From NCBI GenBank assembly GCA_037142675.1, contig JBAXAF010000004.1:326-64325 (forward strand): DNA of 64,000 nucleotides, given 5' to 3'. Below are positions 1,998 to 19,667 of this stretch, one piece after another. The position numbers and the translations under genes are program-made. The first letter of the stretch is position 1; each line of letters begins with the position of its first letter. This DNA is from Candidatus Berkelbacteria bacterium (GTDB taxonomy: Bacteria; Patescibacteriota; UBA1384; XYA2-FULL-43-10; CAINNR01). The notes under the pieces were generated by a model. That model worked only from the letters and a program-made list of their open reading frames with translations, ran no database searches and was not told the origin of the DNA.

Positions 1998-2099
1998 ATT
2001 TCTCCTTAGATTTAACAGACTAAATATTTAAGATAAAAATTTAATAAATTTGTTTTAGTTTTTGTTTTAAATCACTAAATTTTTGTCTATTATTTGACC

Positions 2100-2430
2100 C
2101 ATCCTGTGAATAACTTTTGGTTCAAATTACAACTGATTTCCTTCTCAAAACCGTCTAAATTATTGGCACTTATCCACAGCCCTGTTGATAACTTCTGGGC
2201 TTTTCCACAGGATTGTAATTTGAACCGTTTTTCATTATTGATGGTGCAGAAGTTATCCACAACATACCAGGTAATTCACAGGTTTATCCACTTTTTTATT
2301 AACAGGTTGTTCTACTAAATTACCTACTATTCTATATTGCTTATCTGGTTATCCCCATTATTCACAGCCCTTATTATTATGATTGTTAGTTATTTAAAGT
2401 TTATAACTTATAAAGATGGGCTGTGAATAA
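2100..2430. promoter_or_regulatory. Candidate oriC: DnaA-box cluster plus AT-rich unwinding stretch
   Basis: TTATCCACA or 1-mismatch boxes at 2104, 2170, 2201, 2253, 2283, 2422; AT-rich 2360-2415; lies between dnaN and dnaA. Confidence 0.7.
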
Positions 2431-3816: not shown

Positions 3817-4040
3817 TTCGCTCCTCAAAATTACTGTACTAAAAACATAGCAAGTTATCCACAGGGGGTGCAAGCACCCCAACTAAAAACTAATAACTAA
3901 AAACTAATAACTAAAGAATTGGAGCGACTATTTTCATTATAATAGTTGATTTTCGCATACGCTTGTGTTACACTCTTTCAGTATCGAATAGATTCGAACT
4001 CCACAACTATTCGTTATTCACTATTAGTTATTCGTTATCA

Positions 4041-4178
4041 ATGAAGCGAACTTACCAACCAAACAATCGAAGACGACACAAAAACCACGGCTTTCTAACA
4101 AGAATGAAATCAGCCGATGGTGCTAATGTTATTGCAAGACGAAGAAAAAAGGGCCGCAAGAAATTAAGCGTAGCCTAA
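4041..4178 (+). CDS. rpmH: 50S ribosomal protein L34
   Basis: [45 protein letters not shown]. Confidence 0.93.
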
Positions 4179-4193
4179 ATTAGCTAACAGCTG

Positions 4194-4232
4194 TCAGCTA
4201 TTAGCTTTCAAGAGCCGTAAGGCTCTTTTTTG
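4194..4232 (+). terminator. Intrinsic terminator after rpmH
   Basis: agagccgtaaggctct hairpin followed by tttttt. Confidence 0.7.
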
Positions 4233-4402
4233 TTTTGTTTGGTATAAAATATCCACAGCATGAAGCTGTGTTATTTTTTAACGCTTTGTTTCATTTCTGT
4301 TTCTACCAGAAATGTTACTATTGGTCGCTCAATCATGGGTGGGTAGTCATGACTTTCACTTTCTTGTTATAATCTAGAAAACAACTAACATTTGGAGGCA
4401 AT

Positions 4403-4597
4403 ATGCCAGGAATCGAAAGTGGTCAAGGTGTTTATGGTAGCGATGTTACTCGGGAAGAAAATAAAGATTGGGCAGCAGGCAAAGGGGCCGAAGCAAATGC
4501 AAATGCAAATGAGTTGGCTAAGGGGTTGGGCAGGGAGAATCCTATTGCTCCAGAAGGACCAACACAGGATGAAGAGAGGTTGGATAAAGTCGCCTAA
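4403..4597 (+). CDS. Small hydrophilic hypothetical protein (64 aa)
   Basis: RBS ggagg 7 nt upstream; terminator hairpin 4612-4640; Ala/Asn/Glu-rich low-complexity sequence. Confidence 0.45.
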   Translation: MPGIESGQGVYGSDVTREENKDWAAGKGAEANANANELAKGLGRENPIAPEGPTQDEERLDKVA

Positions 4598-4642
4598 ATT
4601 AATAAGAAAATCAAAACTGAGCTCACCGGAGCTCTTTTTTGA

Positions 4643-4671
4643 TTGACAAAGAATGCTAAATCGTATATATT
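4643..4671 (+). promoter_or_regulatory. Near-consensus sigma70 promoter (TTGACA-17-TATATT)
   Basis: ttgacaaagaatgctaaatcgtatatatt read directly. Confidence 0.6.
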
Positions 4672-4698
4672 CAACGCGCATTAACCGAGCTTATGTGA

Positions 4699-5304
4699 GT
4701 GAGGTGCAAGGCTGTGGATTACCGTACCGCCATAGGCGTAGCTGCTGGCGCGATGATTCTGGCCGGGTATGCTGTATATATCATCGGGATGTTGCGTTCG
4801 GAGGGTAGCCCCCGGCCGGTGACGTGGAGCATCTGGGCGCTAACGGACCTGGCTATTCTTGGCAGCTTCTTGGTCAGCGGAGCTCATAGTGTCGGATGGA
4901 TGCAGTTGGGCACGACCGCCGGAAATGTGGCGGTCACAATTCTTTCGATAAGACGGGGGTTGTTTAGAGTCGGGCGGATTGATGTGGCATGCTTTCTGCT
5001 TGCATTTGCTGCAATCACTGCCCTTGTGATGTTTCATGACCCCGCAGCCACGCTTCTCTTCGGGTTAGCTTCAAAAACAATAGGCTTCATCCCAACAGGA
5101 CTGAAGTTGTGGTTCGCGATGAAGAACTTCAGGGCAGGTGATAGGGAGTTCTGGCCAACGTGGACGCTCTGGGCTGCTGCGGACATGGCAAGCATCTTCG
5201 CGGTTCAACATTTTGTGTCCATTGAGACGCTGGTCCCTGTGCAGTATAGTGCTCAATGCCTTCTAGTGCTTTATCTGAACAGCAAGATCCCCAAGTCCCC
5301 GTGA
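4699..5304 (+). CDS. GC-rich integral membrane protein, hypothetical (cassette A)
   Basis: 201 aa, multiple hydrophobic helices; terminator cccgtgacaaacgggg plus T-run at 5297-5323. Confidence 0.6.
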   Translation: MRCKAVDYRTAIGVAAGAMILAGYAVYIIGMLRSEGSPRPVTWSIWALTDLAILGSFLVSGAHSVGWMQLGTTAGNVAVTILSIRRGLFRVGRIDVACFLLAFAAITALVMFHDPAATLLFGLASKTIGFIPTGLKLWFAMKNFRAGDREFWPTWTLWAAADMASIFAVQHFVSIETLVPVQYSAQCLLVLYLNSKIPKSP

Positions 5305-5334
5305 CAAACGGGGCTTTTTTTATTGACTCACGAT

Positions 5335-5362
5335 TGACAAAGTATATACTTTTTGCTATAAT
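5335..5362 (+). promoter_or_regulatory. Sigma70-like promoter (TTGACA-16-TATAAT)
   Basis: ttgacaaagtatatactttttgctataat. Confidence 0.6.
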
Positions 5363-5432
5363 GCTCGTACACAGTAACGCGTAAATAGGCCGGGCCTGGG
5401 GGCCATCACAATTCCCAGCAGAGGACATAGAA

Positions 5433-6044
5433 ATGCCCAAGAGTCTCCGCGTCGTTCTGGTGGTTGTTGTGATGGTCCTGGCTAGCATGGCTGCGCACGC
5501 TGACGGCACGCTGTTCCAGCGCTTGGACATGGCTCGGGGCGCCGGGCCTTCGTTGACCACCGCTTGGCTCGATTCCTCGGGCCTCGAGTTGTGGTCGTTC
5601 TGCCAGCCGGACTTCCCGATGTACGAGTTGGGCAAGCTCTGGCCGGTCAAGGCCGACGAGGGCGACACCTTGCTTCTGGGAGGGTATGTCAGTTGGTGGG
5701 ACAAGGTCGACCAAGTCTTCCTGGAACCGTTCTGGGTGTACAACCACCCGCTTGACGGCGACTGGAAGATGGAAACCGGAGGTGGGGCTTACGTCCCTCT
5801 GAACGGTGGGCCCTGGGTCTTCTATACGTCCCAGGTGGCTCTGTCTCACCACGTGAGCAAGAACGTGCGCGCCGGGATCGCTGCCACCAACTGGTGGCAG
5901 GAAGGTGTCGGCAACAGTATCGCCATCGGTCCGAAGCTGAAGATCAGCGCTGGAGACACGTCGTGGCTGCTGCGTTACACCTTCGGTGTAGCCGGTGGAG
6001 CGCCCGATACCGCCCGCGTCGAGCTCAGCATCAAGCTGGACTGA
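5433..6044 (+). CDS. GC-rich secreted protein with signal peptide, OMP-like beta-rich (cassette B)
   Basis: MPKSLRVVLVVVVMVLASMAAHADG signal peptide; alternating aromatic/Gly pattern; terminator 6075-6112. Confidence 0.6.
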   Translation: MPKSLRVVLVVVVMVLASMAAHADGTLFQRLDMARGAGPSLTTAWLDSSGLELWSFCQPDFPMYELGKLWPVKADEGDTLLLGGYVSWWDKVDQVFLEPFWVYNHPLDGDWKMETGGGAYVPLNGGPWVFYTSQVALSHHVSKNVRAGIAATNWWQEGVGNSIAIGPKLKISAGDTSWLLRYTFGVAGGAPDTARVELSIKLD

Positions 6045-6118
6045 TGCTGAACACTGAGCAATGAACGAGTACAAGCGTCTGGCCGACTTCTGGTCAGGCG
6101 CTTTTTTAATTCAAATAA

Positions 6119-6907
6119 TTATTTCAGGTGATCCCAAATAAAATAAAACACAGCTCGCCAAGAATCGGCGATGTTTTTGTTTTCGTGAATCGACATATTC
6201 GAGTTCTTGTAGTCAAAGAGGACAAAAAGGTTATTGAAAATAACTATTGGTGCGGGAAACTCCTCTTTGTTAGGCATGTATTTAAGATTCGCAGGAGGTA
6301 AATTAAATCTTTCGACAATATAAGGATTGCGGATGTGTTCTTCAGGCGTTTTTCCGCGCTGACTTTTAGGTAAGATAGCTAGAATATTTACATCAAGCTT
6401 TTCAGCGGGCCTAACAAATTGTTTGAGAATTGGGTTTGATTCTGAGACAGTTTTGTACGAGTTCCCAAATATTAATACTTTGTTAAGTGGGGGTTTAAGC
6501 TCGGCGAATAATTGATAAAGTCGATCATAAAACTTTGTTATTTCATCAATTCCTCGATAATACTCCGTAATAGTTTGGCTTGTCACTCGATTATACTGTT
6601 CATCTATTTTTGGCAGTATTGAGCTAAGTTCCTGCTTTTTATTTGCCAATATTGACTCAAAAACAGACGGATCGGCGGGTTGATAAAGCGTTCTCTTGCC
6701 CTGCTCAATTGACAAGAGTAGTTTTTTTGAGATCAATCGATCGACATAATAATAAACAGCAGTTCTCTCAACGCCAGCGTTACGAGCTATCTCTGAAAAC
6801 GTTGCTTTGCCAAGTTCAACGGACGACAAATAAACCAAGACCTCAATTCGTTCTAGGCCAAGAGCTATCAACGGTTCGATGTCTTTTGAAGTGTCAAAAT
6901 ATTTCAC
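6119..6907 (-). CDS. TrmB-family HTH transcriptional regulator (paralog 1)
   Basis: N-terminal wHTH LGLERIEVLVYLSSVELGKATFSEIARNAGVERTAVYYYVDRL; low GC. Confidence 0.8.
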   Translation of the reverse strand: MKYFDTSKDIEPLIALGLERIEVLVYLSSVELGKATFSEIARNAGVERTAVYYYVDRLISKKLLLSIEQGKRTLYQPADPSVFESILANKKQELSSILPKIDEQYNRVTSQTITEYYRGIDEITKFYDRLYQLFAELKPPLNKVLIFGNSYKTVSESNPILKQFVRPAEKLDVNILAILPKSQRGKTPEEHIRNPYIVERFNLPPANLKYMPNKEEFPAPIVIFNNLFVLFDYKNSNMSIHENKNIADSWRAVFYFIWDHLK

Positions 6908-6966
6908 ATATCTATTATATCAATACTCCAAAACATGTCAAATATTTGGCAATAGTGTCTAAAGCA

Positions 6967-6995
6967 TTGACTAAAATAAGAATAAATGATACAAT
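6967..6995 (+). promoter_or_regulatory. Consensus sigma70 promoter TTGACT-17-TACAAT
   Basis: ttgactaaaataagaataaatgatacaat. Confidence 0.65.
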
Positions 6996-7080
6996 TCGGC
7001 GTTATGCTGAAGTCTCGGATTTTGGCATAAGGCAAAAAACACAAGGCTGGTTTGGTGCCTAACCAAACGGAGATAAATAG

Positions 7081-7674
7081 ATGATTAAGTTTCGCAACGC
7101 TGTTCTGGTGATGGTTGTGCTGGCGGATGTTTGCTCGGGTGTGCTGGCGCAAAGCGCCTTCATCCGCACTGAGGGTGCAGATGGTAAGGCACCGATGCAA
7201 ACGTTTGCCGCATGGGACGATACGTACGAAATCTGGCTCCAATCGTTCAACACCGATAGCTTCACTATTAGGGGTGGACCGCTCCAGAAGCTAGACAACG
7301 GGATGAAGTTGTCTGAGTGTTTGGCATGGACACCCAAAACTGGCGCGCTGGCGGTTAATGTCAACACCGGCAATGCCACGGTCTGCCAGAAGAGCAAGAC
7401 GTTCTGGGAGCTGGGCGCATATGCTCCGTTGAACGACGCGTCGAGTTGGGCGCTGGTGCTGTACGACGCTCGCCTCCTTGCACGGCTAACGCCCGAGCTG
7501 GCAATTGGTCCAGTCGCCTACGGCAAGTGGAGCGAGGGCGCCGGAAACGACTTCCTCTCCGCTGGCGTCGCCGTTGAGTACCGTGTGAAGGGCGGCTGTT
7601 TCTACGGCCGCTTGGCACGGAATCTCGTGTCTGATAAGAACGAGTTCCGGCTTCAATACGCCTTTGGCTTCTAG
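7081..7674 (+). CDS. GC-rich secreted OMP-like beta-barrel protein ending in aromatic F (cassette C)
   Basis: Signal peptide MIKFRNAVLVMVVLADVCSGVLAQSAF; C-terminus ...LQYAFGF (OMP C-terminal signature); terminator 7693-7733. Confidence 0.6.
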   Translation: MIKFRNAVLVMVVLADVCSGVLAQSAFIRTEGADGKAPMQTFAAWDDTYEIWLQSFNTDSFTIRGGPLQKLDNGMKLSECLAWTPKTGALAVNVNTGNATVCQKSKTFWELGAYAPLNDASSWALVLYDARLLARLTPELAIGPVAYGKWSEGAGNDFLSAGVAVEYRVKGGCFYGRLARNLVSDKNEFRLQYAFGF

Positions 7675-7747
7675 CCAACACAAGAACATCAATGCAAGCG
7701 CTGGGCCTTCGGGTCTGGCGCCTTTTTTTGTCCAAATTATGTAACCC

Positions 7748-7776
7748 TTGACAAACAAATATCACTAGGTTATAAT
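7748..7776 (+). promoter_or_regulatory. Consensus sigma70 promoter TTGACA-17-TATAAT
   Basis: ttgacaaacaaatatcactaggttataat. Confidence 0.65.
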
Positions 7777-7993
7777 TGCTCTACTATGGAATTCATACAT
7801 ATACAATCCATGCTCGGATACAAAATCAACCCAACTTTTCGTTGGGCCACCTTTAGTTTGTCTAACCGAGCTGATTCCTCATTTCATTATATAACGTGAT
7901 TTTTTAGAACTCATATATAACTTGAAGAACGTCTTGGTTAGCTAGACCAAGGCGTTTTTGTTTTAGCTATGTTCGTACACAATTTGAAAGGAA
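7777..7993 (+). promoter_or_regulatory. Long structured 5' leader with terminator-like hairpin; candidate riboswitch/attenuator
   Basis: Hairpins cccaacttttcgttggg and gaacgtcttggttagctagaccaaggcg followed by tttttgtttt; RBS aggaag before ATG. Confidence 0.4.
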
Positions 7994-9190
7994 GTGAGAA
8001 AGATGGCAAAAAAGACCGTGAGGTATTACCTGTTGTTGTCGTTGCTCTACCGATTTTCCAATACCTGCTTTGCCGCGACCTATGTAACATTTCTAATGAG
8101 CAGGGGAGGACTAAACCTGTTTCAGGTTAATATGGTCAATTTCATCTTCTTTGCGACGATGTTTTTGACCGAAATCCCGACCGGCGCCGTGGCCGACTGT
8201 TTCGGTCGCAAGCTGTCTTTTCTTATCTCTTGCTCGATTAACTGTGTTTCGTTGCTGGTGTATGCCCTGTCGCACACCTTCACTGGCTTTGCCACCGCCG
8301 AGGCAATGGGCGCAGTTGGGTCAACATTCTCGTCAGGCGCATTTCAGGCCTGGGTGGTTGATTCTCTTAACCACCACGGCTACCAGGAGGACTTTGGCAA
8401 GCTGTTCGCTCGCCAAAACCAGTTGGGCAACTTGGTCGGTATGGGTGCCGCCATCATTGGTGCACACCTGGCAACTATAAACCCGGCTTTCCCTTGGTTT
8501 CTGTCGGCTGCGTTTGTCTTCGCCACTGGTGTTGTCGCAATCTTTGTTATGAGGGAGGACTACCGGGAAAAAAGCAGTATCAATTTGTTGGCGACAGCCA
8601 AAGAGTTCGGCCGCAAGTTTGTGGTTAGCGCCCAAACAATCCGTGCTGGTGGGCCAGTAACACTAATGATGTTACTTGGACTGGTCTATTCCATTGGAGT
8701 CCAAGCCCCCAACATGCAGTGGCAGCCGTATTTCCGTAAGCACTTCGCCTCGGAAGCTGAATTGGGTTATTTGTGGGCTGGTGTCTCATTGGCGATCATC
8801 ATTGGCTCACAAATGTCAGCCATGATGCGTCGTGGGCCTGCGTTCGAGCGACTAGCGTTGATAGGAACCCAGGTTTCTATTGGCCTATTCATCGCGCTAG
8901 CGGGGATACAGTCGCCGTGGATGTTATCTGTTTTGTTTTACCTCATCCACGAGGCTGGGCGTGGGATGTTTTCACCGCTTAAGGATGCGTATCTCAACGA
9001 TGCCATCCAAAAGGAGGAGCGGGCAACCCTACTTTCCTGTGGTTCAATCTCTAGCCACATCGGTTCAATGGTTGGGCTAGTGATGTCTGGTCTTATGGCC
9101 AACAGGCTCTCAATCGCTCCCACCTGGATAGTGTCAGGGATTTTCCTTGTCGTCGGGACACTCGCAGTGTCTCGAATCAAGCGCACATGA
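7994..9190 (+). CDS. MFS-family transporter (cassette D)
   Basis: 398 aa, about 12 TM helices; GRK motif in loop 2-3; terminator gcggtctgc...gcagaccgc plus T-run at 9195-9228. Confidence 0.75.
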   Translation: MRKMAKKTVRYYLLLSLLYRFSNTCFAATYVTFLMSRGGLNLFQVNMVNFIFFATMFLTEIPTGAVADCFGRKLSFLISCSINCVSLLVYALSHTFTGFATAEAMGAVGSTFSSGAFQAWVVDSLNHHGYQEDFGKLFARQNQLGNLVGMGAAIIGAHLATINPAFPWFLSAAFVFATGVVAIFVMREDYREKSSINLLATAKEFGRKFVVSAQTIRAGGPVTLMMLLGLVYSIGVQAPNMQWQPYFRKHFASEAELGYLWAGVSLAIIIGSQMSAMMRRGPAFERLALIGTQVSIGLFIALAGIQSPWMLSVLFYLIHEAGRGMFSPLKDAYLNDAIQKEERATLLSCGSISSHIGSMVGLVMSGLMANRLSIAPTWIVSGIFLVVGTLAVSRIKRT

Positions 9191-9234
9191 CTCAGGCGGT
9201 CTGCTCCTCGCAGACCGCTTTTTTTGTCCCAAAT

Positions 9235-9990
9235 TTAGCCTTCGCCGACTTTTGCCTCGGTGGATTTCTCCCACAATAGAGTGTGGAAAATTTTCATTGC
9301 CTCGTATAGTTCTTTACTCTTAATAAGCATGCCAAAGTTCTCTTTTTGCGTGCTAAAAACACTAAGTTTTCCTGTGTCGTAGATTCCAATTCCAACCTCA
9401 ATTCTCATCCCATCTGGTCCCCATCGCAACTCTCGCAAGTACTCCAAGCCGTGTGATGATGTTTCATAGTTAATATCTGTATCTTTGTATCGAATAGTTT
9501 TGATAAATATTCCCTTTTCAATTCGAGCTTTGTCGATCTCGGCGATTGATCGTACCCCGCCAATCATTTGAGTTGCGCTCCCTGGCCAAATGTAGAGTGC
9601 CTCTTTTTTGCACTTCAACTCCTCGCGGATAACATTGCGCACCTGATCTGGCCCCTCAAAATAACTGACGCGTGGTTTGTGTGGGGTTAGATTAAATAAG
9701 TCTATAAAAGCCGGCAAACTATCTTTTAGTTTTGCCAATCTTTCATTCTCGAGCTCAATCAGGCGTTCTGGCGACTCAGCTTTGTAATTCATTCGGCCGT
9801 TTTTCTCGAACTTTGATATCAAACCCAGTTCAACTAGGTGATCAATAAAGTAATAAATTGATGTTCGTTTAATGCCGGCACGAGCAGCGATTGGAGTAAT
9901 GGTTGAACTGCCAAGCTCCAAAATAGCCAAGTAGACCTTGGCTTCCTTCTCGTCCAACCCAAATTTTACTAGTGTGTCCTCTTTGTTCAT
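9235..9990 (-). CDS. TrmB-family HTH regulator (paralog 2)
   Basis: FGLDEKEAKVYLAILELGSSTITPIAARAGIKRTSIYYFIDHL; start chosen at MNKEDTL (RBS gagga); ORF-track N-terminal 25 aa are GC-rich and atypical. Confidence 0.75.
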   Translation of the reverse strand: MNKEDTLVKFGLDEKEAKVYLAILELGSSTITPIAARAGIKRTSIYYFIDHLVELGLISKFEKNGRMNYKAESPERLIELENERLAKLKDSLPAFIDLFNLTPHKPRVSYFEGPDQVRNVIREELKCKKEALYIWPGSATQMIGGVRSIAEIDKARIEKGIFIKTIRYKDTDINYETSSHGLEYLRELRWGPDGMRIEVGIGIYDTGKLSVFSTQKENFGMLIKSKELYEAMKIFHTLLWEKSTEAKVGEG

Positions 9991-10156
9991 TCCTGTCATC
10001 CTCGGGCTTGCCTGCCCGCCTTTGGAGGGACCCGGGGATCCATTAATAGTTAAGACTTCGCACATATCGTCTAAAAAATCGTCGATAACACATTAATTCT
10101 AGCATAATTGGCACAAATTAGTCAAGTATTATTTGTCTAAATCATTGTCTAATATA

Positions 10157-10185
10157 TTGACAATATGCCAAATCAGTGATACAAT
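10157..10185 (+). promoter_or_regulatory. Consensus sigma70 promoter TTGACA-17-TACAAT
   Basis: ttgacaatatgccaaatcagtgatacaat. Confidence 0.65.
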
Positions 10186-10271
10186 GTGTTGTTACGATCG
10201 AAGTGGCAAACAAGCCAATCGCTCGTAAGGCAGATTACAACTTACGCCGGCGGGCTAACGCTAGGAATGAA

Positions 10272-10694
10272 ATGGATAACGATATTTGCGACTTTGGCTG
10301 TCCTGACGCCGTTGAGAACATCGCATTCAGTGGAAACACGTATTACGGCTTTGCTCGTTACGAAATCGCCACCGAGACCCGCGGGGGCATTCCTTACAAG
10401 ACTGAGGTTCGCGTCAACTATTTCCCCGTTGTTGATGGGCGCGTTCGGGTAGTAGATGTGGTTTTGATGCGATTCACCTGGGAGTCGTTTTACAAGACGC
10501 ATACGGTCGATGAAGCGCTGAAATCCAATTGGCCAGAAATATTGGCCGAGATGATCGCGGAGTCGCTGCCGGTTCGCATCGAGGAATTCTGCATCGCACG
10601 GCGCAAGAGTAGTGATCAGATGATACAGAATTTTAAGGAATGGCTGAAGTGTGAAAAGGGAATTGAGCTTTCGGAAGACCGCTCTGAACCGTAG
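10272..10694 (+). CDS. GC-rich hypothetical protein (operon E, gene 1)
   Basis: Start MDNDICDF with RBS aggaa; the ORF-track start 10176 would lie inside the promoter. Confidence 0.55.
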   Translation: MDNDICDFGCPDAVENIAFSGNTYYGFARYEIATETRGGIPYKTEVRVNYFPVVDGRVRVVDVVLMRFTWESFYKTHTVDEALKSNWPEILAEMIAESLPVRIEEFCIARRKSSDQMIQNFKEWLKCEKGIELSEDRSEP

Positions 10695-10719
10695 CAGGTT
10701 CGGAGCCGTTTCCGAGGGA
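10668..10719 (+). repeat. 52-nt hairpin-containing direct repeat, copy 1 (overlaps the 3' end of gene 1)
   Basis: ctttcggaagaccgctctgaaccgtagcaggttcggagccgtttccgaggga; about 92% identical to 11137-11188. Confidence 0.8.
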
Positions 10720-10756
10720 AATCAAGTGCTGGCGAGCCAAAACGCAAGGAAATAAC

Positions 10757-11131
10757 ATGAGTGGTACAGTTGACGATTTGATGGCAGCGCTTCGGATGAT
10801 CGACAGTCACTCGCAGCAGCTTGATGAAGAAAAAGAGACCCTGGCGTTGGCGCGGCGTGTCATCTCCGATCGTCACTTCCGGCAGCTGGTTCAGCGGCTG
10901 GAAACCGATCGGGTTGGATTGGCACGCGAGATCCTCGAAGCCGAGCAGATCCGCATCGACAACACCCCGATCGAAGATCTGTCGCTGTCGGTTCGGACAT
11001 ACAACGGCTTGAAGAAGAGTGGTATCAACACCCTCGGAGAGCTGGCTGAGTGCACGAAGGAGAAGTTGGCAGGCATCCGCAACTGGGGCCGCCGCTGCCA
11101 GGAAGAAGTAGATGAGATTCTGAAGAAATAG
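10757..11131 (+). CDS. Standalone RNA polymerase alpha-subunit C-terminal-domain-like protein
   Basis: IEDLSLSVRTYNGLKKSGINTLGELAECTKEKLAGIRNWGRRCQEEVDEILKK resembles the RpoA alpha-CTD helix-hairpin-helix. Confidence 0.6.
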   Translation: MSGTVDDLMAALRMIDSHSQQLDEEKETLALARRVISDRHFRQLVQRLETDRVGLAREILEAEQIRIDNTPIEDLSLSVRTYNGLKKSGINTLGELAECTKEKLAGIRNWGRRCQEEVDEILKK

Positions 11132-11136
11132 GAGTG

Positions 11137-11188
11137 CTTTCGGACGACCGCTCTGAACTGTAACAGGTTCGGAGCCGTTTCCGAGGGA
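11137..11188 (+). repeat. 52-nt direct repeat, copy 2
   Basis: ctttcggacgaccgctctgaactgtaacaggttcggagccgtttccgaggga. Confidence 0.8.
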
Positions 11189-11214
11189 GATAATCAGAAA
11201 GGTGGTTATGAAGT

Positions 11215-11625
11215 ATGTACATGTACCCTTTTGCATGGAGTGGCCAGGTATATAATCTGGGCGAAGGCGATGTCCAGATGCTGGTTGAGTTGTTGTGTGC
11301 AGGCCTAGACAAGGTGCTTGTAAACAACGATTACGAAGATGGCTCCAGGAAAGTGCGAATCTCGACTCACGACTATAAAAAGGCTAAATTCAACGACAAG
11401 CTGATCGAGCTCGAGTATACACTTCCCTGCAGGCATTTGCTTGTAGGACTGGGAAGTGGAGATTACCCGCGCTCCTTGCATCTTCCGCAAGCAATCGGTG
11501 GGGGGACCCTCGTCCGTAAGTCTCACGAGCCTGGCAAACCTATATACGTATGTCAGTTGGACATTGGAGACAGAAAGATAGAGCTGAAGGTGTGTTTCGT
11601 TGTGACTGAAGACAAGTTGAGATAG
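11215..11625 (+). CDS. GC-rich hypothetical protein (operon E, gene 3)
   Basis: RBS aaaggtgg; terminator ctccgggtcgtgattgattcggag plus T-run at 11660-11690. Confidence 0.55.
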   Translation: MYMYPFAWSGQVYNLGEGDVQMLVELLCAGLDKVLVNNDYEDGSRKVRISTHDYKKAKFNDKLIELEYTLPCRHLLVGLGSGDYPRSLHLPQAIGGGTLVRKSHEPGKPIYVCQLDIGDRKIELKVCFVVTEDKLR

Positions 11626-11750
11626 TCCAAGCAACTGCTGTCGGCAACCAACTTCGCCTCCGGGTCGTGATTGATTCGGAGCTTTTTTATTTCAAACTAG
11701 ATCCTTCGGCTACTCTCAGGATGACAATCTAAAAAATTCATGCTAAACTT

Positions 11751-12104
11751 TTGGCAATGTTAAACAATATCAACCGCCTGCGGAAGGCGGGGGAAATCCA
11801 AAAAGTATTCAAATTCGGCAAATCAATACGGTCTGCTAATTTTTCTATTCGCTATAATCCGAACCGCGCAAGCAATAATCGCTTCGCTGTTGTTGTTGGC
11901 ACAAAGGTGGACAAGCGAGCAACTCGCAGAAACGCTATAAAACGGCTTGTAAGAGAAGTTATTCGCTTAAATATACAATCTATCCCGACAAGCTTTGATA
12001 TTGTTCTCACGGCTCACAAACTAGCAAATTGGCCGATAAAACTGGTCGATGTCCAGCCAGAATTAACAGAACTGTTAAAACAAATTCGAAACTCTAAATC
12101 CTAA
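11751..12104 (+). CDS. rnpA: RNase P protein component
   Basis: 117 aa with conserved FAVVVGTKVDKRATRRNAIKRLVRE. Confidence 0.9.
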   Translation: MAMLNNINRLRKAGEIQKVFKFGKSIRSANFSIRYNPNRASNNRFAVVVGTKVDKRATRRNAIKRLVREVIRLNIQSIPTSFDIVLTAHKLANWPIKLVDVQPELTELLKQIRNSKS

Positions 12105-12205
12105 ATCCTAAACAAATCCAAATGATCCAATTTTCAAATATTTTAAACATTAAGACATTTGAATTTTGATATTGTTTAGAAATTAGATATTAGAATTTAG
12201 AAATT
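12095..12205. repeat. AT-rich palindromic intergenic repeat (family member)
   Basis: Nearly identical to 20583-20690: ...caaatgatccaattttcaaatattttaaacattaagacatttgaattttgatattgtttag... Confidence 0.7.
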
Positions 12206-12448
12206 ATGAAAAAAATCTTAATAAAAATCATTGAATTTTATCAGCGAACACTTTCGCCTGATCATGGATTTTTTTCATATAAATATCCAGCAGGATATTG
12301 CAAATATCATCCTGATTGCTCTGAATATTGTAAGCAGGCAATAGAGAAAAAAGGCGCTGTGAGGGGGATTGCGCTCGGAGCGTGGCGTGTGCTACGATGT
12401 AATCCATGGAGTTCTGGGGGGTACGATCCGGTGAATCATGAATCATGA
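12206..12448 (+). CDS. yidD: Membrane protein insertion efficiency factor YidD
   Basis: 80 aa, cysteine-rich YidD fold. Confidence 0.85.
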   Translation: MKKILIKIIEFYQRTLSPDHGFFSYKYPAGYCKYHPDCSEYCKQAIEKKGAVRGIALGAWRVLRCNPWSSGGYDPVNHES

Positions 12449-12509
12449 ATTGTGAATAATGGGCTCAAAACCATAATTCTTAATTCATAATTCTTAATTC
12501 AAGGAAAAA

Positions 12510-13382
12510 ATGTCTGCATTTTTCACAACCATCTTGTTTGTCCCGATCTATAACATGCTAATGTACTTGGTTGCCGTTATCCCTGGCCATCAAGTGGCAC
12601 TGGCTATTATCTTGCTAACTATTATCATTCGTCTGGTTCTTTTGCCATCTTCAATCAAGGCATCAAAATCTACAATTGAAATGCAGAAGATTCAACCACT
12701 ATTGAATGCTGTTCGGGCCAAATACAAGGGTGATCAGCTGAAAATGTCACAAGAAATGCAACGCCTGTTCAAGGAGCACAAGGTTTCGCCGTATGGAAGT
12801 TGTTTGCCACTAATTGTGCAGATGGTTGTACTTGTAGTTTTTTATCGGGTAATATTGATTGGTTTCAGCGCTGGCCACTTTAATCTCCTTTACTCATTTA
12901 TTCCCAAGCCTTCAGAGATTAATCTTGCCTTCTTTGGCATTGATGTTTCCAAGCCAGATCTGTGGGTTCTGCCAATTCTAGCTGGCGCGCTGCAGTTTGT
13001 TCAGACAAAAATGATGCCGCAGCCACCGCAATCAAAAGGTTCGAATGATCCAGCTGCAATGATGAACAAGCAAATAATCTATTTTTTGCCCTTGATTACA
13101 ATCTTCATCGGTCGTGCGCTTCCTGCGGGCCTGGCACTTTATTGGGTTCTAACATCCGTGGTTATGATTTTTCAGCAGTGGTATGTCAATAATCAATTTA
13201 AACTTGGTTTCTGGGGTAAGTTCCCTAATGTGCCAATTGCAGAGCTTCCTGAATACACCATAGATGATAAATCATCAGCCAAAGGCACTGAACTACACCC
13301 AGAACATGAAAAAATTATTCAGGCCGACGAAAAAAAGATCCGAGCTAAAGGCGTTGAGATTACAGTTCGAAAACGCAAGTAA
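12510..13382 (+). CDS. yidC: Membrane protein insertase YidC
   Basis: 290 aa, multi-TM; synteny rnpA-yidD-yidC. Confidence 0.88.
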   Translation: MSAFFTTILFVPIYNMLMYLVAVIPGHQVALAIILLTIIIRLVLLPSSIKASKSTIEMQKIQPLLNAVRAKYKGDQLKMSQEMQRLFKEHKVSPYGSCLPLIVQMVVLVVFYRVILIGFSAGHFNLLYSFIPKPSEINLAFFGIDVSKPDLWVLPILAGALQFVQTKMMPQPPQSKGSNDPAAMMNKQIIYFLPLITIFIGRALPAGLALYWVLTSVVMIFQQWYVNNQFKLGFWGKFPNVPIAELPEYTIDDKSSAKGTELHPEHEKIIQADEKKIRAKGVEITVRKRK

Positions 13383-13473
13383 GTTGCAAGTAACAAGTGA
13401 ATCAAGTAAAAAGTTGATAGAATTAAAAAATCCGCAATCAAATGCGGGTTTTTTAATTGAAATAGTCTAGCTT

Positions 13474-13752
13474 TTGAGCTATGATTCAAGCGTCATGAAA
13501 TATTTTGTCTACATGCTAGAGAATCAAAAAGGAAGACATTATATTGGAATAACAACTGATTTGGAACGCAGACTGGCCGAACATAATATTAATGGCGCCA
13601 AATCGACAAAGCCATTTGGACCGTGGAAAATGATTTATTCTGAGCAATTTGATTCCAGATCAGAGGCTTGCAAACGAGAGTGGCATTTAAAAAATTCACC
13701 AGGAAAGAAAGAAAAATCCGATATTATTAAACAATACGGAGAGGTCGCATAG
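13474..13752 (+). CDS. GIY-YIG domain nuclease (UPF0213-like)
   Basis: YFVYMLENQKGRHYIGITTDLERRLAEHN. Confidence 0.75.
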   Translation: MSYDSSVMKYFVYMLENQKGRHYIGITTDLERRLAEHNINGAKSTKPFGPWKMIYSEQFDSRSEACKREWHLKNSPGKKEKSDIIKQYGEVA

Positions 13753-13828
13753 TTGGTCTAGTGCGCTTGTTTCGAAAACAAGTAGGGCTGCAAGGCTCTC
13801 GCGAGTTCGAATCTCGCCCTCTCCGCCA
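13738..13828 (+). tRNA. tRNA-Ser (anticodon CGA)
   Basis: ggagaggtcgcatagttggtctagtgcgc...ttcgaaa anticodon loop, long variable arm, gagttcgaatctcgc T-arm, CCA encoded; overlaps the last 15 nt of the upstream ORF. Confidence 0.8.
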
Positions 13829-13888
13829 AGCTTAGCTTGGCAATTGAGACGCTTGGCGTCTCGCCAATAAATATAAATCGTAAATATT

Positions 13889-14203
13889 ATGTTTGATAAA
13901 GCAGTAGAATTTGAAAAACTAATTGAATATCAAGAAGGTGTTGTTGCAAGTCGAACTATCATCGACAAAAAAGCCGGTACGGTAACAGTGTTTGCTTTTG
14001 ATAAGGGTCAAGGGCTTTCCGAGCATATCGCGCCGTACGATGCCCTAGTTTATGCACTAGATGGTGAGGCTGAAATAATTGTTTCCGGCGAAAAACAACA
14101 GCTAGCAAAGGGTGAGATGTTGATAATGCCAGCTGGATCGCCTCATTCTCTGAAAGCTGCCGAGAAATTCAAAATGGTTTTAGTAATGATACGAGAGAAA
14201 TAA
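13889..14203 (+). CDS. Cupin-domain protein
   Basis: 104 aa small beta-barrel cupin pattern. Confidence 0.65.
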   Translation: MFDKAVEFEKLIEYQEGVVASRTIIDKKAGTVTVFAFDKGQGLSEHIAPYDALVYALDGEAEIIVSGEKQQLAKGEMLIMPAGSPHSLKAAEKFKMVLVMIREK

Positions 14204-14206
14204 ATA

Positions 14207-15358
14207 ATGAAATTTCCTAAAAACTTTCTTTTTGGATCGGCGACCTCGGCTCATCAAATTGAAGGCCATTTAAATAACGATTGGGCACGCTGGGAAAAAA
14301 CTCCTGGCCATATTTCCGATGGCACAACGTCCGAAACTGGTGCTGATAGTTGGAATAAGTGGCGAGATGATATTCGGCTGCTTAATAATACCTCTCAGAA
14401 TGCCTACAGATTTTCCATTGAATGGTCACGAATTGAGCCAGAAGAAGGTATGTTTGATGAAGACGCTACCCAGCATTACCGGGAAATTATCAACGAGCTA
14501 AATAAGAATAATATCACCCCAATGGTGACACTTTTCCATTTCACCTGTCCACTTTGGCTTGACGATATTGGCGGTGTTGCCAGCAGAAAATTCGCCCGGT
14601 ATTTTGCTCGCTTTGCCGGCAGGATGGCGAAAGAATTCGGCCACAAGGTTGATCTCTGGTCGGTGATTAATGAACCCAGTGTATATGTTAACGCCGGCTA
14701 CATTATTGGTCATTGGTACCCGGGCAAGCGCAACATTATTGGTGGGGTCAAGGCATTTTTTCACCTTGTTTCTGCTCACAAACAAGCGTACATAAGCATG
14801 AAGAATGCTAACCCGAGGGTCAAGGTAGGAATTGCTATGAATATGACTGCATTTGCACCAGTTAAAAACACTTGGTGCAACCGTGTTCTAACGAGGGTAG
14901 CAAAATGGTTGGTAAATGAATATTCAATAAATTTGGTTCGCAAAAACCTCGACTTTCTCGGCATAAATCATTATATGTCACACAAAATTCAATGCAAAAA
15001 ACCAGTCATGTTTGACGAGGGTGGAGTTAAAAGCGAATATGGCTGGAGCGTTCACCCAGAAGGACTCTATCAAGTAATAATGGAAGCCAAGCACTGGAAG
15101 CTGCCAATCTACATTACAGAGAACGGCACGGCTGATTCATCTGATAAATTGCGACAATCATTCATCACCAATTTTTTAGAAAAATGCTCCAAAGCCATTG
15201 CTGATGGCGCCGACCTTCGAGGCTACTTTCACTGGTCCCTGATTGACAATTTTGAATGGGCGAGCGGATATTCGATGAAATTTGGCCTGCACACCATAGA
15301 CAGAAAACCCCGCAAATCGGCGGAGATTTATAAGAAAATTATAGAAAGTTCTAGATAA
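14207..15358 (+). CDS. GH1-family beta-glucosidase-like glycoside hydrolase
   Basis: FLFGSATSAHQIEG N-terminal signature and ITENG catalytic motif. Confidence 0.8.
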   Translation: MKFPKNFLFGSATSAHQIEGHLNNDWARWEKTPGHISDGTTSETGADSWNKWRDDIRLLNNTSQNAYRFSIEWSRIEPEEGMFDEDATQHYREIINELNKNNITPMVTLFHFTCPLWLDDIGGVASRKFARYFARFAGRMAKEFGHKVDLWSVINEPSVYVNAGYIIGHWYPGKRNIIGGVKAFFHLVSAHKQAYISMKNANPRVKVGIAMNMTAFAPVKNTWCNRVLTRVAKWLVNEYSINLVRKNLDFLGINHYMSHKIQCKKPVMFDEGGVKSEYGWSVHPEGLYQVIMEAKHWKLPIYITENGTADSSDKLRQSFITNFLEKCSKAIADGADLRGYFHWSLIDNFEWASGYSMKFGLHTIDRKPRKSAEIYKKIIESSR

Positions 15359-15367
15359 ATTTTGAAT

Positions 15368-15400
15368 AAAAAAGCCCTGGCGTGACAACAACCAGGGTGG
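15368..15400. terminator. Bidirectional intrinsic terminator
   Basis: aaaaaagccctggcgtgacaacaaccaggg; T-run on the minus strand. Confidence 0.65.
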
Positions 15401-15423
15401 GCACTCTTGGCTTTCGAACCAGG

Positions 15424-16293
15424 TCAGGCAGACCTGACCGTGGCAGCATCCTCGGGCTGGCCAATGATCTGGCGGTACTTGTCGCGTAGCTCCGGCGACA
15501 ACCTCTCTGTCATGCTGATAGCGTCTCGACGGCCGCACAGGCTATCGTGGTGAGTGATGTGGGCGGCAACCAGTTTTTCGACTGCCGCCTCACGTTTGGC
15601 CGGTGGGAAGAGCGGGATCATGCACTCGGCATAATCGAGCCGGTAACTGGCGCTGCATGCTTCGTGGAAAAGCGCACGAAGACGCTTCTGGTCTCTAATG
15701 AAACCGAGCTCGGAGCTGAAACCGTTGACATCGCGGTAGGTGTACTGCGATCGGTGATGTTCAGCCGGGTGCATATCCATCTCGAGCAGGGAGAAGAACA
15801 GCCTCTCAAATGCTGCGTGTCGCAACCGCTTCGAGTCGATGGCGCGGATCGACCGCAGTGTTTCTTCGACGTTCCAGAAGCCATACCGGCAAAGCTGCAC
15901 GTTGGCGGCGTCACGGTCCTTTTTTGGGAGACCGACGATTGCTTTTCGCACTATGCGAATGTCGGAGTTCCGACGTGCGAGGTACTTCGGCATCCAGGTC
16001 ATAACCTCGTCGGTGTTCAGGTGACGACCAACGACCTCGAGATCGCGAAGCATGCCGTCGTAGTTGTAGCCATTTTCAACCACAATGGCTACAACTTTGC
16101 CTGCCTGCCCAGGTTGGAGCTCCTTTGGCAGTAGCGGAATGGCGGTGATGAGCGCAATCCTGAGCTGTTGGTGGCTGATCATCTTATCGATGACACCTGT
16201 TACCAGCTCCACCTTTCGCTCGGCGCTCATGTCTTGGAAGCAGTAGCTTAGCTGGCGCTCATATTCGTCCCCCCCAGATGTGGCTGACGGCAC
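15424..16293 (-). CDS. GC-rich hypothetical protein (island F)
   Basis: 289 aa; overlaps the upstream gene by 35 nt. Confidence 0.55.
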   Translation of the reverse strand: MPSATSGGDEYERQLSYCFQDMSAERKVELVTGVIDKMISHQQLRIALITAIPLLPKELQPGQAGKVVAIVVENGYNYDGMLRDLEVVGRHLNTDEVMTWMPKYLARRNSDIRIVRKAIVGLPKKDRDAANVQLCRYGFWNVEETLRSIRAIDSKRLRHAAFERLFFSLLEMDMHPAEHHRSQYTYRDVNGFSSELGFIRDQKRLRALFHEACSASYRLDYAECMIPLFPPAKREAAVEKLVAAHITHHDSLCGRRDAISMTERLSPELRDKYRQIIGQPEDAATVRSA

Positions 16294-16798
16294 AGTTGTA
16301 CCTGGCCATGACTAAGCAATGCAGCCGGTCTTCTGAGCGGTATTTGCTATTGGTCAGGCTTGAAGCATCCCTGGCCTGGTAATCGTAGCCGCCGAGGATA
16401 GTCAGCTCGTGAATTCGTCTTCCGACCTGTTTGCGCAGATGTTTTGTTTCGATCTTCCGGCACCAGTTGATCGCCGCCCAGAGTAGGGCCGCTGATCTGT
16501 GGTTATCGCTGCAAATTTCGACCTCAGCGATAAACTGGTTACAGGCTGCAAGTCGAAGATTATCAGCCTTGTCGCCGAGAAGTGCAGCAATTCTTGAGAG
16601 TGATTGCTCGGACTGGTGGATAGTGCGCCCGGTCATCCCGCCACCAGGTGTGATAATCACCATCCAGTGGATTAAGGACTTGGCGCATACCATCAACTGG
16701 TGATAAGTCAGACTGTGTCCGAGTTGGGTCACCAGGGTCACGGCCGCGTCAATATCACCAGCGATGATCAGAGCAGACAACAATTGCAAGGATCTCAT
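16259..16798 (-). CDS. GC-rich hypothetical protein (island F)
   Basis: 179 aa; RBS gagagg; minus-strand promoter TTGATT-17-TATAAC at about 16842-16870. Confidence 0.55.
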   Translation of the reverse strand: MRSLQLLSALIIAGDIDAAVTLVTQLGHSLTYHQLMVCAKSLIHWMVIITPGGGMTGRTIHQSEQSLSRIAALLGDKADNLRLAACNQFIAEVEICSDNHRSAALLWAAINWCRKIETKHLRKQVGRRIHELTILGGYDYQARDASSLTNSKYRSEDRLHCLVMARYNCAVSHIWGGRI

Positions 16799-16919
16799 TG
16801 TAGGTTCCTCTCACAAATCGGGTTGATTGTGAAACACCTAAGTTATATCAGCAAGCAATATTTTAATCAAATTTAATAAAAAAAACGCGGCGAAGGAACT
16901 CGCCGCGTGTACTCTTTGC

Positions 16920-18578
16920 TCAGATGTATCCGCTTTTTAGCCGGAAGTACATTCTGGCACTCACGTAACGGAAGAGGCGGACAGCTCGCGCCAGCCTGAC
17001 TCGTTGTGACGGTGAACTCATCAGAAATCCTGCTACTGCATGCTCGTCTTCGGCTGTTGCCAGCTTTTCGATGGCGTAGGCATGCAGCCCCTTTGGATGT
17101 ATGGGGTAGAGCCACTTGCTTTTGAAACAAATAGCTTCGGTGATGATTGGAATATAAGCTGGCGCAAGCTCAGATTGCCGGCTTATTTTGATGCCTGTGA
17201 CTGTCGGCATCAGCCCATGCCAGTTGATTGAACGGACGACCCAGTCGCGCTCATTGGCGCTGACGTTATCCAGTAACCCAGCCAGCAGGACAGGACCAAT
17301 ACGCTGGATGGCGGCGCGGTACTCGACTTCTGACGCGCCTTTGCAGAATGTCATTGCGGCGCCAACATGTTCGGCCCCAAATCGGCGTTCAAGAGCCCCA
17401 AAACTCATTGTGTGTGCCAAAGGCTTCAGCATTGCCGGCACAATCAGCGGGTTTCTGGACAACTCTGGAATGATCTCCTGTTCGGGACCGAAGATTCCCA
17501 TTTGTGGGTACCTTGGCAAAAGCAATTCTTGGGTCGCCATCCGCGCTTCTGACCGGTCGATGCGATTGCAGTTTCTGATCACCTCGCCAGCATCAACTTC
17601 TTCCAGTGCAACCGCCCAGAGGATGATCATCTTGCCGCCTTGATTCCCCCGATAGAGCGCATCAGGTGCGCCCATCTCGAAGGCCTCGACTACCCAGTGT
17701 CTGTCTGTCGGCGACCTCCATGTCTGGATGGCTTCTTGCAGTTCTCTCTCCTCAATCGACTCGATCTCGTTTTGTTTTGACAGCGCCAAGATCGCCGACA
17801 CCTCGGTTACCGTGCCGCGCCGGCCAAGTAATACCGAAATGACGGGAAGCAGGAAACCAGCCATTGGGAGACCGTGGTTTGCTACCAGGTTCGCAGCCTC
17901 GTGAATAAGTAGCGGCTGTCGTCCCCGACGATCGATCGTCTCTGCCTCGTAGAAAAGGCTAATGATCTGCCGTTCGTCCAGCCCTTCTACCCGAAATCGG
18001 CTGGCAAGCGCAGAGATGTAATCGTAGCCGAGCTCGGCGGTGTGGTAGCCCCACCAGAACCGGTCTTGAGCGTGTTCGTATTGTGGGTCATGATACTCTG
18101 GCAGTACGCCACGTCGGGAGGTCTCAGAAGGTGGAGGAGCCAAGTCCATGCCCATTTTGATCTCGGCTAGCCCGAACTTGACCGCTCCATCGATGTAGGA
18201 AGTCAGTCGGTTCGTGCCATAAGGATATTCCATATGTAGCACAAACTCGGTGGTCTCGCAGACCAGGTCGTAATTTCCGGCCTTAATCTGCCTGCCAATC
18301 TTCACCGAACAGTAATCATCAAGCGCAAGTTTGAACTTCGCCTGATACTCTATTAGCCTGGCCAGTGTTGGGTAGCCAATACGGGCAGCAATGTGCTTGA
18401 GCAGTTTGACGTATGCCCAAAGGCGCACATCTCCCTTTTCGGTGGTCACTTCGCACTCGTCATCACACTTTGTGACCTTTGGCTGAAGGCGTCGGACCTG
18501 CTGCAAGAGCTTCAAGCTCTCCAACAGAAACGGCTCAAGTTTGCCACTAATCTCCAAAAGTGCAACCCATGGTCTCAT
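16920..18578 (-). CDS. GC-rich large hypothetical protein (island F)
   Basis: 552 aa; minus promoter TTGACA-16-TAAGAT at 18609-18636; terminator cgcggcgaaggaactcgccgcg at 16888-16910. Confidence 0.6.
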   Translation of the reverse strand: MRPWVALLEISGKLEPFLLESLKLLQQVRRLQPKVTKCDDECEVTTEKGDVRLWAYVKLLKHIAARIGYPTLARLIEYQAKFKLALDDYCSVKIGRQIKAGNYDLVCETTEFVLHMEYPYGTNRLTSYIDGAVKFGLAEIKMGMDLAPPPSETSRRGVLPEYHDPQYEHAQDRFWWGYHTAELGYDYISALASRFRVEGLDERQIISLFYEAETIDRRGRQPLLIHEAANLVANHGLPMAGFLLPVISVLLGRRGTVTEVSAILALSKQNEIESIEERELQEAIQTWRSPTDRHWVVEAFEMGAPDALYRGNQGGKMIILWAVALEEVDAGEVIRNCNRIDRSEARMATQELLLPRYPQMGIFGPEQEIIPELSRNPLIVPAMLKPLAHTMSFGALERRFGAEHVGAAMTFCKGASEVEYRAAIQRIGPVLLAGLLDNVSANERDWVVRSINWHGLMPTVTGIKISRQSELAPAYIPIITEAICFKSKWLYPIHPKGLHAYAIEKLATAEDEHAVAGFLMSSPSQRVRLARAVRLFRYVSARMYFRLKSGYI

Positions 18579-18684
18579 GGTTGGCCTCTATTCTTGAGTA
18601 TCGCACTCATCTTAGCTCATGATTGTTTTATGTCAATAAAAAAAGGCGGGTATTAGCCGCCGTTAGTATTTGTGCAAGCCAACT

Positions 18685-19503: not shown

Positions 19504-19667
19504 TAGAAAGCACCTCTTTGGGTTGCTGGTTTTATGGGTCTGCAAGAAGGAAAATACCATTTTTTATTATTGATGTCAATGACATCCAGGGCGGTAGAAC
19601 TAATATCTGACCAATCTGATAATTTTTGTGGTAAAATAGATCTAAATATTAAGGAGGAGGAAATATT

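Follow-up and report, generated by a model that had tools for sequence, protein, structure and literature searches.

A free-standing alpha-CTD protein in a Berkelbacteria operon with a conserved intercistronic hairpin

Why would a bacterium encode a small protein that resembles the C-terminal domain of the RNA polymerase alpha subunit (alpha-CTD) in an operon of its own, and why is its gene bracketed by two copies of one short repeat? We wondered about this at a three-gene operon (positions 10157-11690) in a 64,000-nt stretch of a Candidatus Berkelbacteria metagenome-assembled genome (MAG) from the Candidate Phyla Radiation (CPR). This whole stretch is referred to as the window. The original prediction held that the second gene of the operon had been slotted in and that the repeats derived from the 3' end of the first gene. 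Our analysis leads to a different answer. With moderate confidence we conclude that the locus is a resident, vertically inherited Berkelbacteria operon, which is organised around a free alpha-CTD, is probably controlled by a TrmB-family regulator and carries a sense-strand intercistronic hairpin.

The central gene of the operon, gene 2 (10757-11131, plus strand), encodes a protein of 124 amino acids in which a family-specific N-terminus of ~60 residues is followed by an alpha-CTD (residues 66-123). Bacterial RNA polymerase makes contact with UP elements and class I activators mainly through this domain. Residues 66-123 matched the family PF03118 (RNA_pol_A_CTD) with E=3.5e-19 and 68.7 bits (cutoff 23.8). 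When the profile of the small-protein family was compared with the PDB, RpoA CTD chains were matched at E=3e-19, so that the similarity of the 124-aa protein to the RpoA CTD is significant. The best solved relatives of the domain are Firmicute RpoA CTDs, with that of Bacillus subtilis at the top. No Pfam match to the N-terminal domain of the alpha subunit (alpha-NTD) was found in gene 2, and the full-length rpoA model TIGR02027 reached 59.9 bits against a cutoff of 227.8, with only model positions 189-290 covered. The early description of gene 2 as an alpha-CTD-like protein that lacks an alpha-NTD was thus confirmed. Judged by its sequence, the gene 2 product belongs to the alpha-CTD domain family and is not an alpha subunit; because it has no alpha-NTD it cannot be an assembly-competent alpha subunit. 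No rpoA gene lies within the 64-kb window.

Residues 69-122 of gene 2 align to residues 254-307 of E. coli RpoA (offset 185). In E. coli, R265, N268, N294, G296 and K298 form the '265 determinant' that contacts the DNA minor groove. Four of these residues are retained in gene 2 (R80=R265, N83=N268, N109=N294, G111=G296) and the fifth is conservatively replaced (R113=K298). Residue 261, a sigma contact of RpoA in E. coli, is a serine in gene 2, and the protein stops right behind the last helix. With a dN/dS (ratio of nonsynonymous to synonymous divergence) of 0.07-0.16, gene 2 is under purifying selection. The conserved DNA-contact residues are compatible with the earlier idea that the protein might act as a decoy for UP elements or activator contacts.

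Was gene 2 inserted into a pre-existing operon? Close homologues of gene 2 are found in two other Berkelbacteria lineages (P0001, 92% identity; P0002, 80% identity), and both sit in the same slot between the TrmB-family gene and rnpA. The order of the operon differs between the lineages. In the window it reads promoter, gene 1, hairpin, gene 2, hairpin, gene 3, terminator, where the hairpin is the repeat. In L001/L012 the promoter is followed by a structured non-coding segment of ~260 nt, gene 2, gene 1, the hairpin, a gene termed g79 and the terminator. In L007-L009 the order is promoter, a gene termed g108, hairpin, the same non-coding segment, gene 2, hairpin, g79 and terminator. Gene 2 is the only operon gene found in all relatives at this slot, and its synonymous divergence (dS) of 0.49-0.88 resembles that of the flanking TrmB, rnpA and yidC genes (0.47-1.35). 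As gene 2 is present in every relative and diverges like its flanks, it is old at this slot. A relative without gene 2, which would show an empty site with one repeat copy, was not found among the relatives at this slot. These data contradict the proposed insertion of gene 2. A reading of the repeats as target-site or flanking duplications was rejected on the same grounds, the presence of gene 2 in all relatives at the slot and the dS comparable to the flanks. Six independent assemblies, which stem from at least five samples, agree with the arrangement of the window at every base, so that an assembly artefact can be discounted.

Gene 1 behaves differently. It is present in two lineages only, where it precedes gene 2 (window) or follows it (L001/L012), and it is more diverged than gene 2. 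L007 lacks gene 1, and there the hairpin follows g108 and gene 2. Homologous hairpins without gene 1 occur in L007 and in the more distant loci L024, L026 and L028. Because the hairpin occurs without gene 1 in these four loci, we conclude from the gene orders that gene 1 is the movable part and that gene 1 reads into a pre-existing hairpin, not the reverse. The proposed origin of the repeats from the 3' end of gene 1 had to be abandoned for this reason.

The ~260-nt non-coding segment upstream of gene 2 (L001 ~190-470; L007 ~2907-3150) is of interest in its own right. It folds with z = -5.5 relative to shuffled sequences and shows 8 compensatory pairs between its two versions. It had no Rfam match and no conserved ORF, and neither the window nor L024-L028 contained a counterpart by blastn or nhmmer. 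We regard it as a candidate for a new leader or regulatory RNA.

We then turn to the repeat. Copy A (10667-10722) and copy B (11136-11191), both on the plus strand, are 56 nt long and identical at 52 of 56 positions; the 52-nt core recognised earlier differs at 3 positions. The direct repeat that had been described is therefore real, but it spans 56 rather than 52 nt, and of gene 1 it takes in the final 8 codons and the stop. The TAG of gene 1 (10692-10694) lies in the hairpin loop of copy A. Copy B is non-coding, begins 5 nt past the stop codon of gene 2 and has kept an in-register stop codon in its loop. On the plus strand both copies fold into an imperfect stem of ~21 bp that is interrupted by a bulge and a 1x1 mismatch (paired regions 10668-10718 and 11137-11187), with energies of -33.3 kcal/mol (copy A, z = -5.0) and -29.3 kcal/mol (copy B, z = -3.7). 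An imperfect plus-strand hairpin is thus what the RNA fold suggested for the repeat yields in both copies. The minus strands fold 8-10 kcal/mol worse (-25.2 and -19.3 kcal/mol) because several stem pairs are G-U.

An alignment of eight hairpins fitted to a covariance model supports the stem. Standard pairs make up 93.8% of the paired cells; sliding the partners lowers this share to 34-56%. Compensatory double changes are seen at seven pairs, and none of 500 shuffles attained the observed covariation score. Certain columns repeatedly hold U-G or G-U pairs, in alternation with C-G or U-A. The antisense strand would have A-C mismatches there, so it is the sense strand that is structured. Two blocks are invariant in 8/8 copies, TCGGA at the 5' base and CUG in the inner stem. 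Hairpin copies are identical to one another at 49-52 of 56 positions, and the hairpin after gene 2 is identical at 52/56 positions between the window and L007 despite a gene 2 dS of 0.88 for that pair, which indicates that the hairpin is under constraint. When a model trained solely on the five Berkelbacteria copies was run with filters off, the top match in L028 (E=2e-5), L026 (E=1.6e-4) and L024 (E=5e-4) was exactly the hairpin, with the next best match at E of at least 0.15. With default filters the five-copy model missed these distant hairpins.

How widespread is the hairpin? In the 64-kb window a 22-nt core pattern with up to 3 mismatches matched only copies A and B, with 0 matches expected by chance, and neither the pattern search nor the covariance model found a third copy. 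Scans of larger collections used the exact pattern, which diverged copies would escape. Among GTDB species genomes it matched only the orthologous locus of two Berkelbacteria MAGs, and among JGI metagenomes it matched two contigs, both at this locus; viral contigs gave no match. A generic repetitive extragenic palindrome scattered across the genome had been named as the finding that would speak against the original prediction; what we found is a repeat specific to this locus in the window and in the collections scanned. With two copies in the window and all collection matches confined to this locus, a dispersed repetitive extragenic palindromic sequence or bacterial interspersed mosaic element (REP/BIME) was rejected. 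An intrinsic terminator was rejected as well, since the copies have no U-tract and are followed by GAAAUC and GAGAUA. Rfam 15 covariance models had no match in 9900-11800 at E<=5; only tRNAs were detected in the window and in L001/L007. In form the hairpin corresponds to an RNase III site, as it provides an imperfect, covariation-backed, sense-strand double-stranded RNA stem of about two helical turns between cistrons.

Beyond the sister lineages, an exhaustive HMMER search with gene 2 returned 4081 representative proteins at E<=1e-3, RpoA subunits included. Most of the best 150 matches are proteins with several tandem alpha-CTD copies; among the best matches are proteins with 3-11 of them. 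Small, near-full-length relatives are P0028 (121 aa), P0147 (117 aa) and P0075 (118 aa), with 42-46% identity. In L024, L026 and L028 a homologous hairpin stands beside the gene-2 relative, directly after the gene in L024 and L026 and directly before it in L028. A divergent gene for a TrmB-like winged helix-turn-helix (wHTH) protein lies beside P0028 and P0147 (L024, L026), that is in two of three cases and wherever the upstream flank was assembled; these TrmB-like genes matched the window regulator with E=1e-7 to 1e-17. P0001, P0002, P0028 and P0147 form a subfamily with an N-terminal region of its own, tied to a TrmB-like regulator and a specific hairpin. P0002 carries the NCBI name RNA polymerase alpha C-terminal domain-containing protein. 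Literature searches found no functional study of stand-alone alpha-CTD proteins.

The regulator in the window, TrmB2 (9235-9990, minus strand), is a wHTH protein of the TrmB family, whose orthologues match PF01978, and it is transcribed divergently from the operon. Its open frame extends to 10065; we set the start at the methionine equivalent to position 9990, as in relatives. TrmB2 shares 96% amino-acid identity with its L012 orthologue. The operon is preceded by a sigma-70-type promoter (10157-10185, plus strand; TTGACA-17-TACAAT with an extended -10 TG) that agrees with the consensus at 11/12 positions, and back-to-back with it lies a promoter-like site for TrmB2 (10125-10096, minus strand). 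The L001 and L007 lineages have kept the operon promoter, and the same hexamers are present in L024 (TTGACA-17-TGATACAAT). The region between TrmB2 and the operon is more conserved than synonymous sites. Since the divergent layout is classical, recurs in distant relatives and surrounds a well-conserved intergenic region, we infer that the TrmB-like protein regulates the divergent promoter. An inverted repeat, ATTGTC-N9-GACAAT (10144-10164), overlaps the -35 box of the operon. It might be the operator to which the divergent TrmB-like regulator binds, but only 5/6 of it is preserved in the sister lineages.

A leader motif, GATTACA-N-GCCGRCGRGCTAACGC-N-AGGAA (variant GCTGGCGAGCCAAAACGCRAGG), is found just ahead of the first gene and of gene 2, next to their start codons. 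The window contains it as a translation-initiation leader GATTACA...GCCGGCGGGCTAACGCTAGGAA before gene 1 (10233-10271, plus strand) and as the variant GCTGGCGAGCCAAAACGCAAGGAA before gene 2 (10728-10751, plus strand). Further sites are located at L007 3156-3187, L001 458-493, L024 863-889 and L026 572-594, and the motif stands before g108 and gene 2 in L007, before gene 2 in L001 and before the gene-2 relative in L026. In distant relatives it takes the form GGCTAACGC.AGGA, or GCTGGCGAGCCAAAACGCGAGG, ahead of the start codon. The variant at 10728-10751 has a near-identical match in L024, ahead of the gene-2 relative. The motif may represent a translation-control element.

Some observations weigh against the reading of the locus as a resident operon with a hairpin as one of its fixed parts. 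The gene 2 of L001 has no hairpin behind it and the junction between gene 2 and gene 1 is hairpin-free in this lineage, so that not every junction requires the element. The hairpin alignment comprises 8 sequences, of which 5 are closely related, and the three distant ones had initially been chosen by eye. Last, single-sequence alignments had suggested that the N-terminal region of gene 2 (residues 25-60) retains the last helix of an alpha-NTD, a dimerisation helix; the family profile did not reproduce this, and the idea was dropped.

Could the operon be as we propose, with the hairpin serving as a protein-binding site? It might be bound by an operon product, or by a ribosomal or other RNA-binding protein, and mediate autoregulation or antitermination. 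The invariant TCGGA and CUG blocks go beyond what a generic stabiliser needs, and the hairpin is tightly tied to relatives of gene 2 only, as would be expected of such a site. The alpha-CTD fold is not known to bind RNA, however, and the position of the hairpin relative to start and stop codons varies from inside gene 1 to after gene 2 to before the gene-2 relative in L028. We consider a protein-binding site unlikely on balance.

A second possibility is that the locus descends from a phage or another mobile element as a domesticated fragment, or serves in defence or as a toxin-antitoxin-like module, in which the alpha-CTD interferes with host transcription and the ORFans act as effectors. Many viral contigs in IMG/VR (L030-L054) indeed carry ORFs of 99-175 aa that consist of an alpha-CTD only, and fusions of the domain to a sigma-70 region-4-like part, recognised by eye and not by hidden Markov model, are seen in L034, L046 and L053. 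PglW of the defence system BREX contains the same domain. Other accessory genes in the region (HicAB, ParE, GIY-YIG), a GC content above that of the flanks and the fast turnover of the ORFan partners point in the same direction. In contrast, genes 1 and 3 had no match in PADLOC or PHROGs, g108 and g79 had none in Pfam or NCBIfam, and no integrase, structural or replication genes are adjacent. Three lineages share the same chromosomal slot with a dS like that of the flanks, the exact hairpin pattern was not found on viral contigs, and the pairing with TrmB, repeated in distant relatives, suggests a stable cellular regulon. A phage or defence origin is thus quite improbable.

The hairpin might also be a site for site-specific recombination in an integron-like array, in which cassettes of a gene plus hairpin move behind a fixed promoter. 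Promoterless genes stand behind a single strong promoter, the hairpin lies 3' of several genes, the stop codon of gene 1 falls within it, and gene order and content vary between close relatives. However, no recombinase domain was found in the scanned ORFs of 2431-19560 or in the gene calls of relatives within ~5 kb, and the only recombinase near the operons of relatives is a serine recombinase ~5 kb off in L012. The hairpin ends, CTTTCGGA and TCCGAGGG, contain no attC core sites (RYYYAAC/GTTRRRY), and the copies are near-identical rather than cassette-specific (49-52/56). The junction between gene 2 and gene 1 in L001 is free of the hairpin, gene 3 and g79 are modules without a hairpin of their own, and the G-U pattern indicates a sense-strand RNA. 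We therefore give very little credence to a cassette array. A recent insertion of gene 2 into an operon of genes 1 and 3, with the repeats as an insertion-made duplication of the gene 1 3' end, would account for the bracketing of gene 2, the overlap of copy A with the end of gene 1 and the in-register stop codon in the loop of copy B, yet is highly improbable given that gene 2 is present in all relatives with a dS like the flanks, that no relative lacking gene 2 was found, that L007, L024, L026 and L028 have the hairpin without gene 1 and that gene 1 itself shifts its place between the window and L001.

We return to the resident operon. It occupies an origin-proximal variable region between dnaA/rpmH and rnpA-yidD-yidC. 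The constant core of the family comprises a divergent TrmB-family gene, a strong sigma-70-type promoter with its leader, a free alpha-CTD and an imperfect sense hairpin of ~50 nt. Around this core the lineage-specific ORFans gene 1, gene 3, g108 and g79 are, by comparison of close relatives, swapped and reordered. The window has two hairpins because gene 1 and gene 2 each carry one at their 3' side, not because gene 2 was inserted.

How might such an operon work? The TrmB-like protein would control the operon promoter. The free alpha-CTD would bind UP-element-like DNA rich in A/T, the usual partner factors of the polymerase alpha-CTD, or both, as the conservation of the DNA-contact residues suggests, and might thereby compete with, or substitute for, the polymerase's own domain. 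In the mRNA the hairpin would act as an intercistronic processing or stability element that sets the relative expression of the modules; its length of about two helical turns, its imperfect stem, the missing U-tract and its place between cistrons speak for such a role. The near-identical copies could also offer homology for rearrangements, although recombination at the hairpin cannot explain all reordering, because the junction of gene 2 and gene 1 in L001 has none. Taken one step further, the locus would be a transcription-control module of some CPR bacteria that has so far escaped description, in which a TrmB-type regulator drives a free alpha-CTD paralogue that rivals or replaces the alpha-CTD of the polymerase at UP-element-like DNA or activator contacts, while the hairpin and, in sister lineages, the ~260-nt leader tune expression. 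We put this bolder view forward tentatively and consider it doubtful. The module as such appears real, conserved and narrowly distributed, and the mechanism outlined here is a proposal.

The operon at 10157-11690 is a compact transcription unit with a promoter, three plus-strand ORFs and a terminator. Gene 1 (10272-10694, plus strand) is an ORFan of 140 aa. Its mechanical ORF begins at a GTG at 10176; the most likely start is the ATG at 10272, which is preceded by an AGGAA Shine-Dalgarno sequence. Gene 3 (11215-11625, plus strand), an ORFan of 136 aa between copy B and the terminator, has an AGGTGG Shine-Dalgarno sequence 8 nt upstream. The operon ends with an intrinsic terminator (11658-11690, plus strand), the sole plus-strand terminator-like site near its end. 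The 3' half of this terminator is shared with the terminator after g79 in L007 (3886-3955), though the preceding genes differ. The L007 terminator starts with GACCGCTC, as does the hairpin repeat, and gave a weak covariance-model match of 20.8 bits. Terminator and hairpin repeat may be related.

The description of a GC-rich three-gene operon held up. The GC content of the operon is 0.49-0.56 (0.57-0.69 at third codon positions, GC3). The window as a whole has 0.44, and the TrmB, rnpA and yidC genes that flank the operon have 0.42, with a GC3 of 0.40-0.45. The contrast is only modest, because other patches of the window reach a GC content of 0.50-0.57.

Homologues of the ORFans are few. For gene 1 we found a single one (P0005, 71% amino-acid identity), which stands beside gene 2, after it, so that the co-occurrence the original prediction had asked about was seen for gene 1 only; gene 3 had no homologue but itself, and in relatives the 79-aa gene g79 takes its place. 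The dN/dS values of gene 1 (0.22) and g79 (0.07) indicate purifying selection. Genes 1 and 3 had no family match in Pfam, NCBIfam, PADLOC or PHROGs, nor did g108 and g79 in Pfam and NCBIfam. AlphaFold models of gene 1 and gene 3 had a predicted local distance difference test score (pLDDT) of 44.9 and 38.8, respectively, and both were too poor for fold searches.

The surroundings of the operon deserve mention. Its downstream neighbours are rnpA, yidD and yidC, and dnaN and dnaA lie at 891-3882. In the neighbourhood of dnaA, rpmH and rnpA are usually contiguous. Here several kb of accessory genes separate the two (L012 4098-8800, equivalent to window ~4000-11750), namely HicAB, two TrmB paralogues with divergent ORFans and the operon described here. 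This origin-proximal region looks like a hotspot for variable genes. The second TrmB paralogue (6119-6907, minus strand) is divergent from a GC-rich ORF of 197 aa (7081-7674, plus strand) with a signal-peptide-like N-terminus and an end, ...YAFGF, like that of an outer-membrane beta-barrel, a protein type unexpected in a CPR bacterium. A weak paralogue of this ORF is found at 5433-6044 (plus strand; E=0.006), and neither ORF had a Pfam match.

Two more distant alpha-CTD proteins have neighbours with roles in replication or repair. P0018 (265 aa), in which the IRNWGRRCQ motif of gene 2 recurs, lies ahead of a DciA-like gene (L025 57-1194), and P0003 follows an NAD-dependent DNA ligase (L010 4108-6387). 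Pfam scans of the neighbours of P0018 and P0003 gave no functional lead, and the proximity to replication and repair genes may be a coincidence.

What does the locus add to known systems? The direct repeat does not testify to a recent insertion; it is an RNA hairpin that an operon family has conserved. Alpha-CTD proteins other than RpoA proved to be common in the representative and viral searches, small stand-alone ones on phage contigs included. If our reading is true, a separately regulated, cell-encoded free alpha-CTD would be a simple and so far uncharacterised global modulator of polymerase contact, and the locus, with its conserved partner regulator and RNA element, would offer a compact test case. 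TrmB-type regulators are archaeal-style.

Gene 2 resembles the alpha-CTD of RpoA (PF03118) in that, by sequence, it belongs to the same helix-hairpin-helix fold family and its minor-groove residues are kept or conservatively replaced; unlike RpoA it has no alpha-NTD, has its own N-terminus of ~60 residues and carries a serine at position 261. With the annotated alpha-CTD-containing proteins, such as phage-encoded ones and PglW of BREX, it shares the occurrence of the domain outside RpoA, where it is numerous and often arranged in tandem, whereas the gene 2 subfamily has its own N-terminus, a TrmB-like partner and a specific hairpin. Integron attC arrays likewise have a hairpin 3' of promoterless genes, a common promoter and a variable gene order. 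In contrast to these arrays, the operon family has no integrase that we could find and no attC cores, its copies are near-identical, one junction is free of the site and the hairpin bears a sense-strand RNA signature. The hairpins of the T7 early operon that serve as RNase III sites, and 3' stabiliser hairpins, come closer. They too are bulged, imperfect stems of ~20 bp on the sense strand, located between cistrons downstream of a strong promoter and without a U-tract, whereas the Berkelbacteria hairpin is far more conserved in sequence and one of its copies overlaps the end of a coding region. By form only, the RNase III sites of the T7 early genes would thus be the closest functional analogue of this hairpin.

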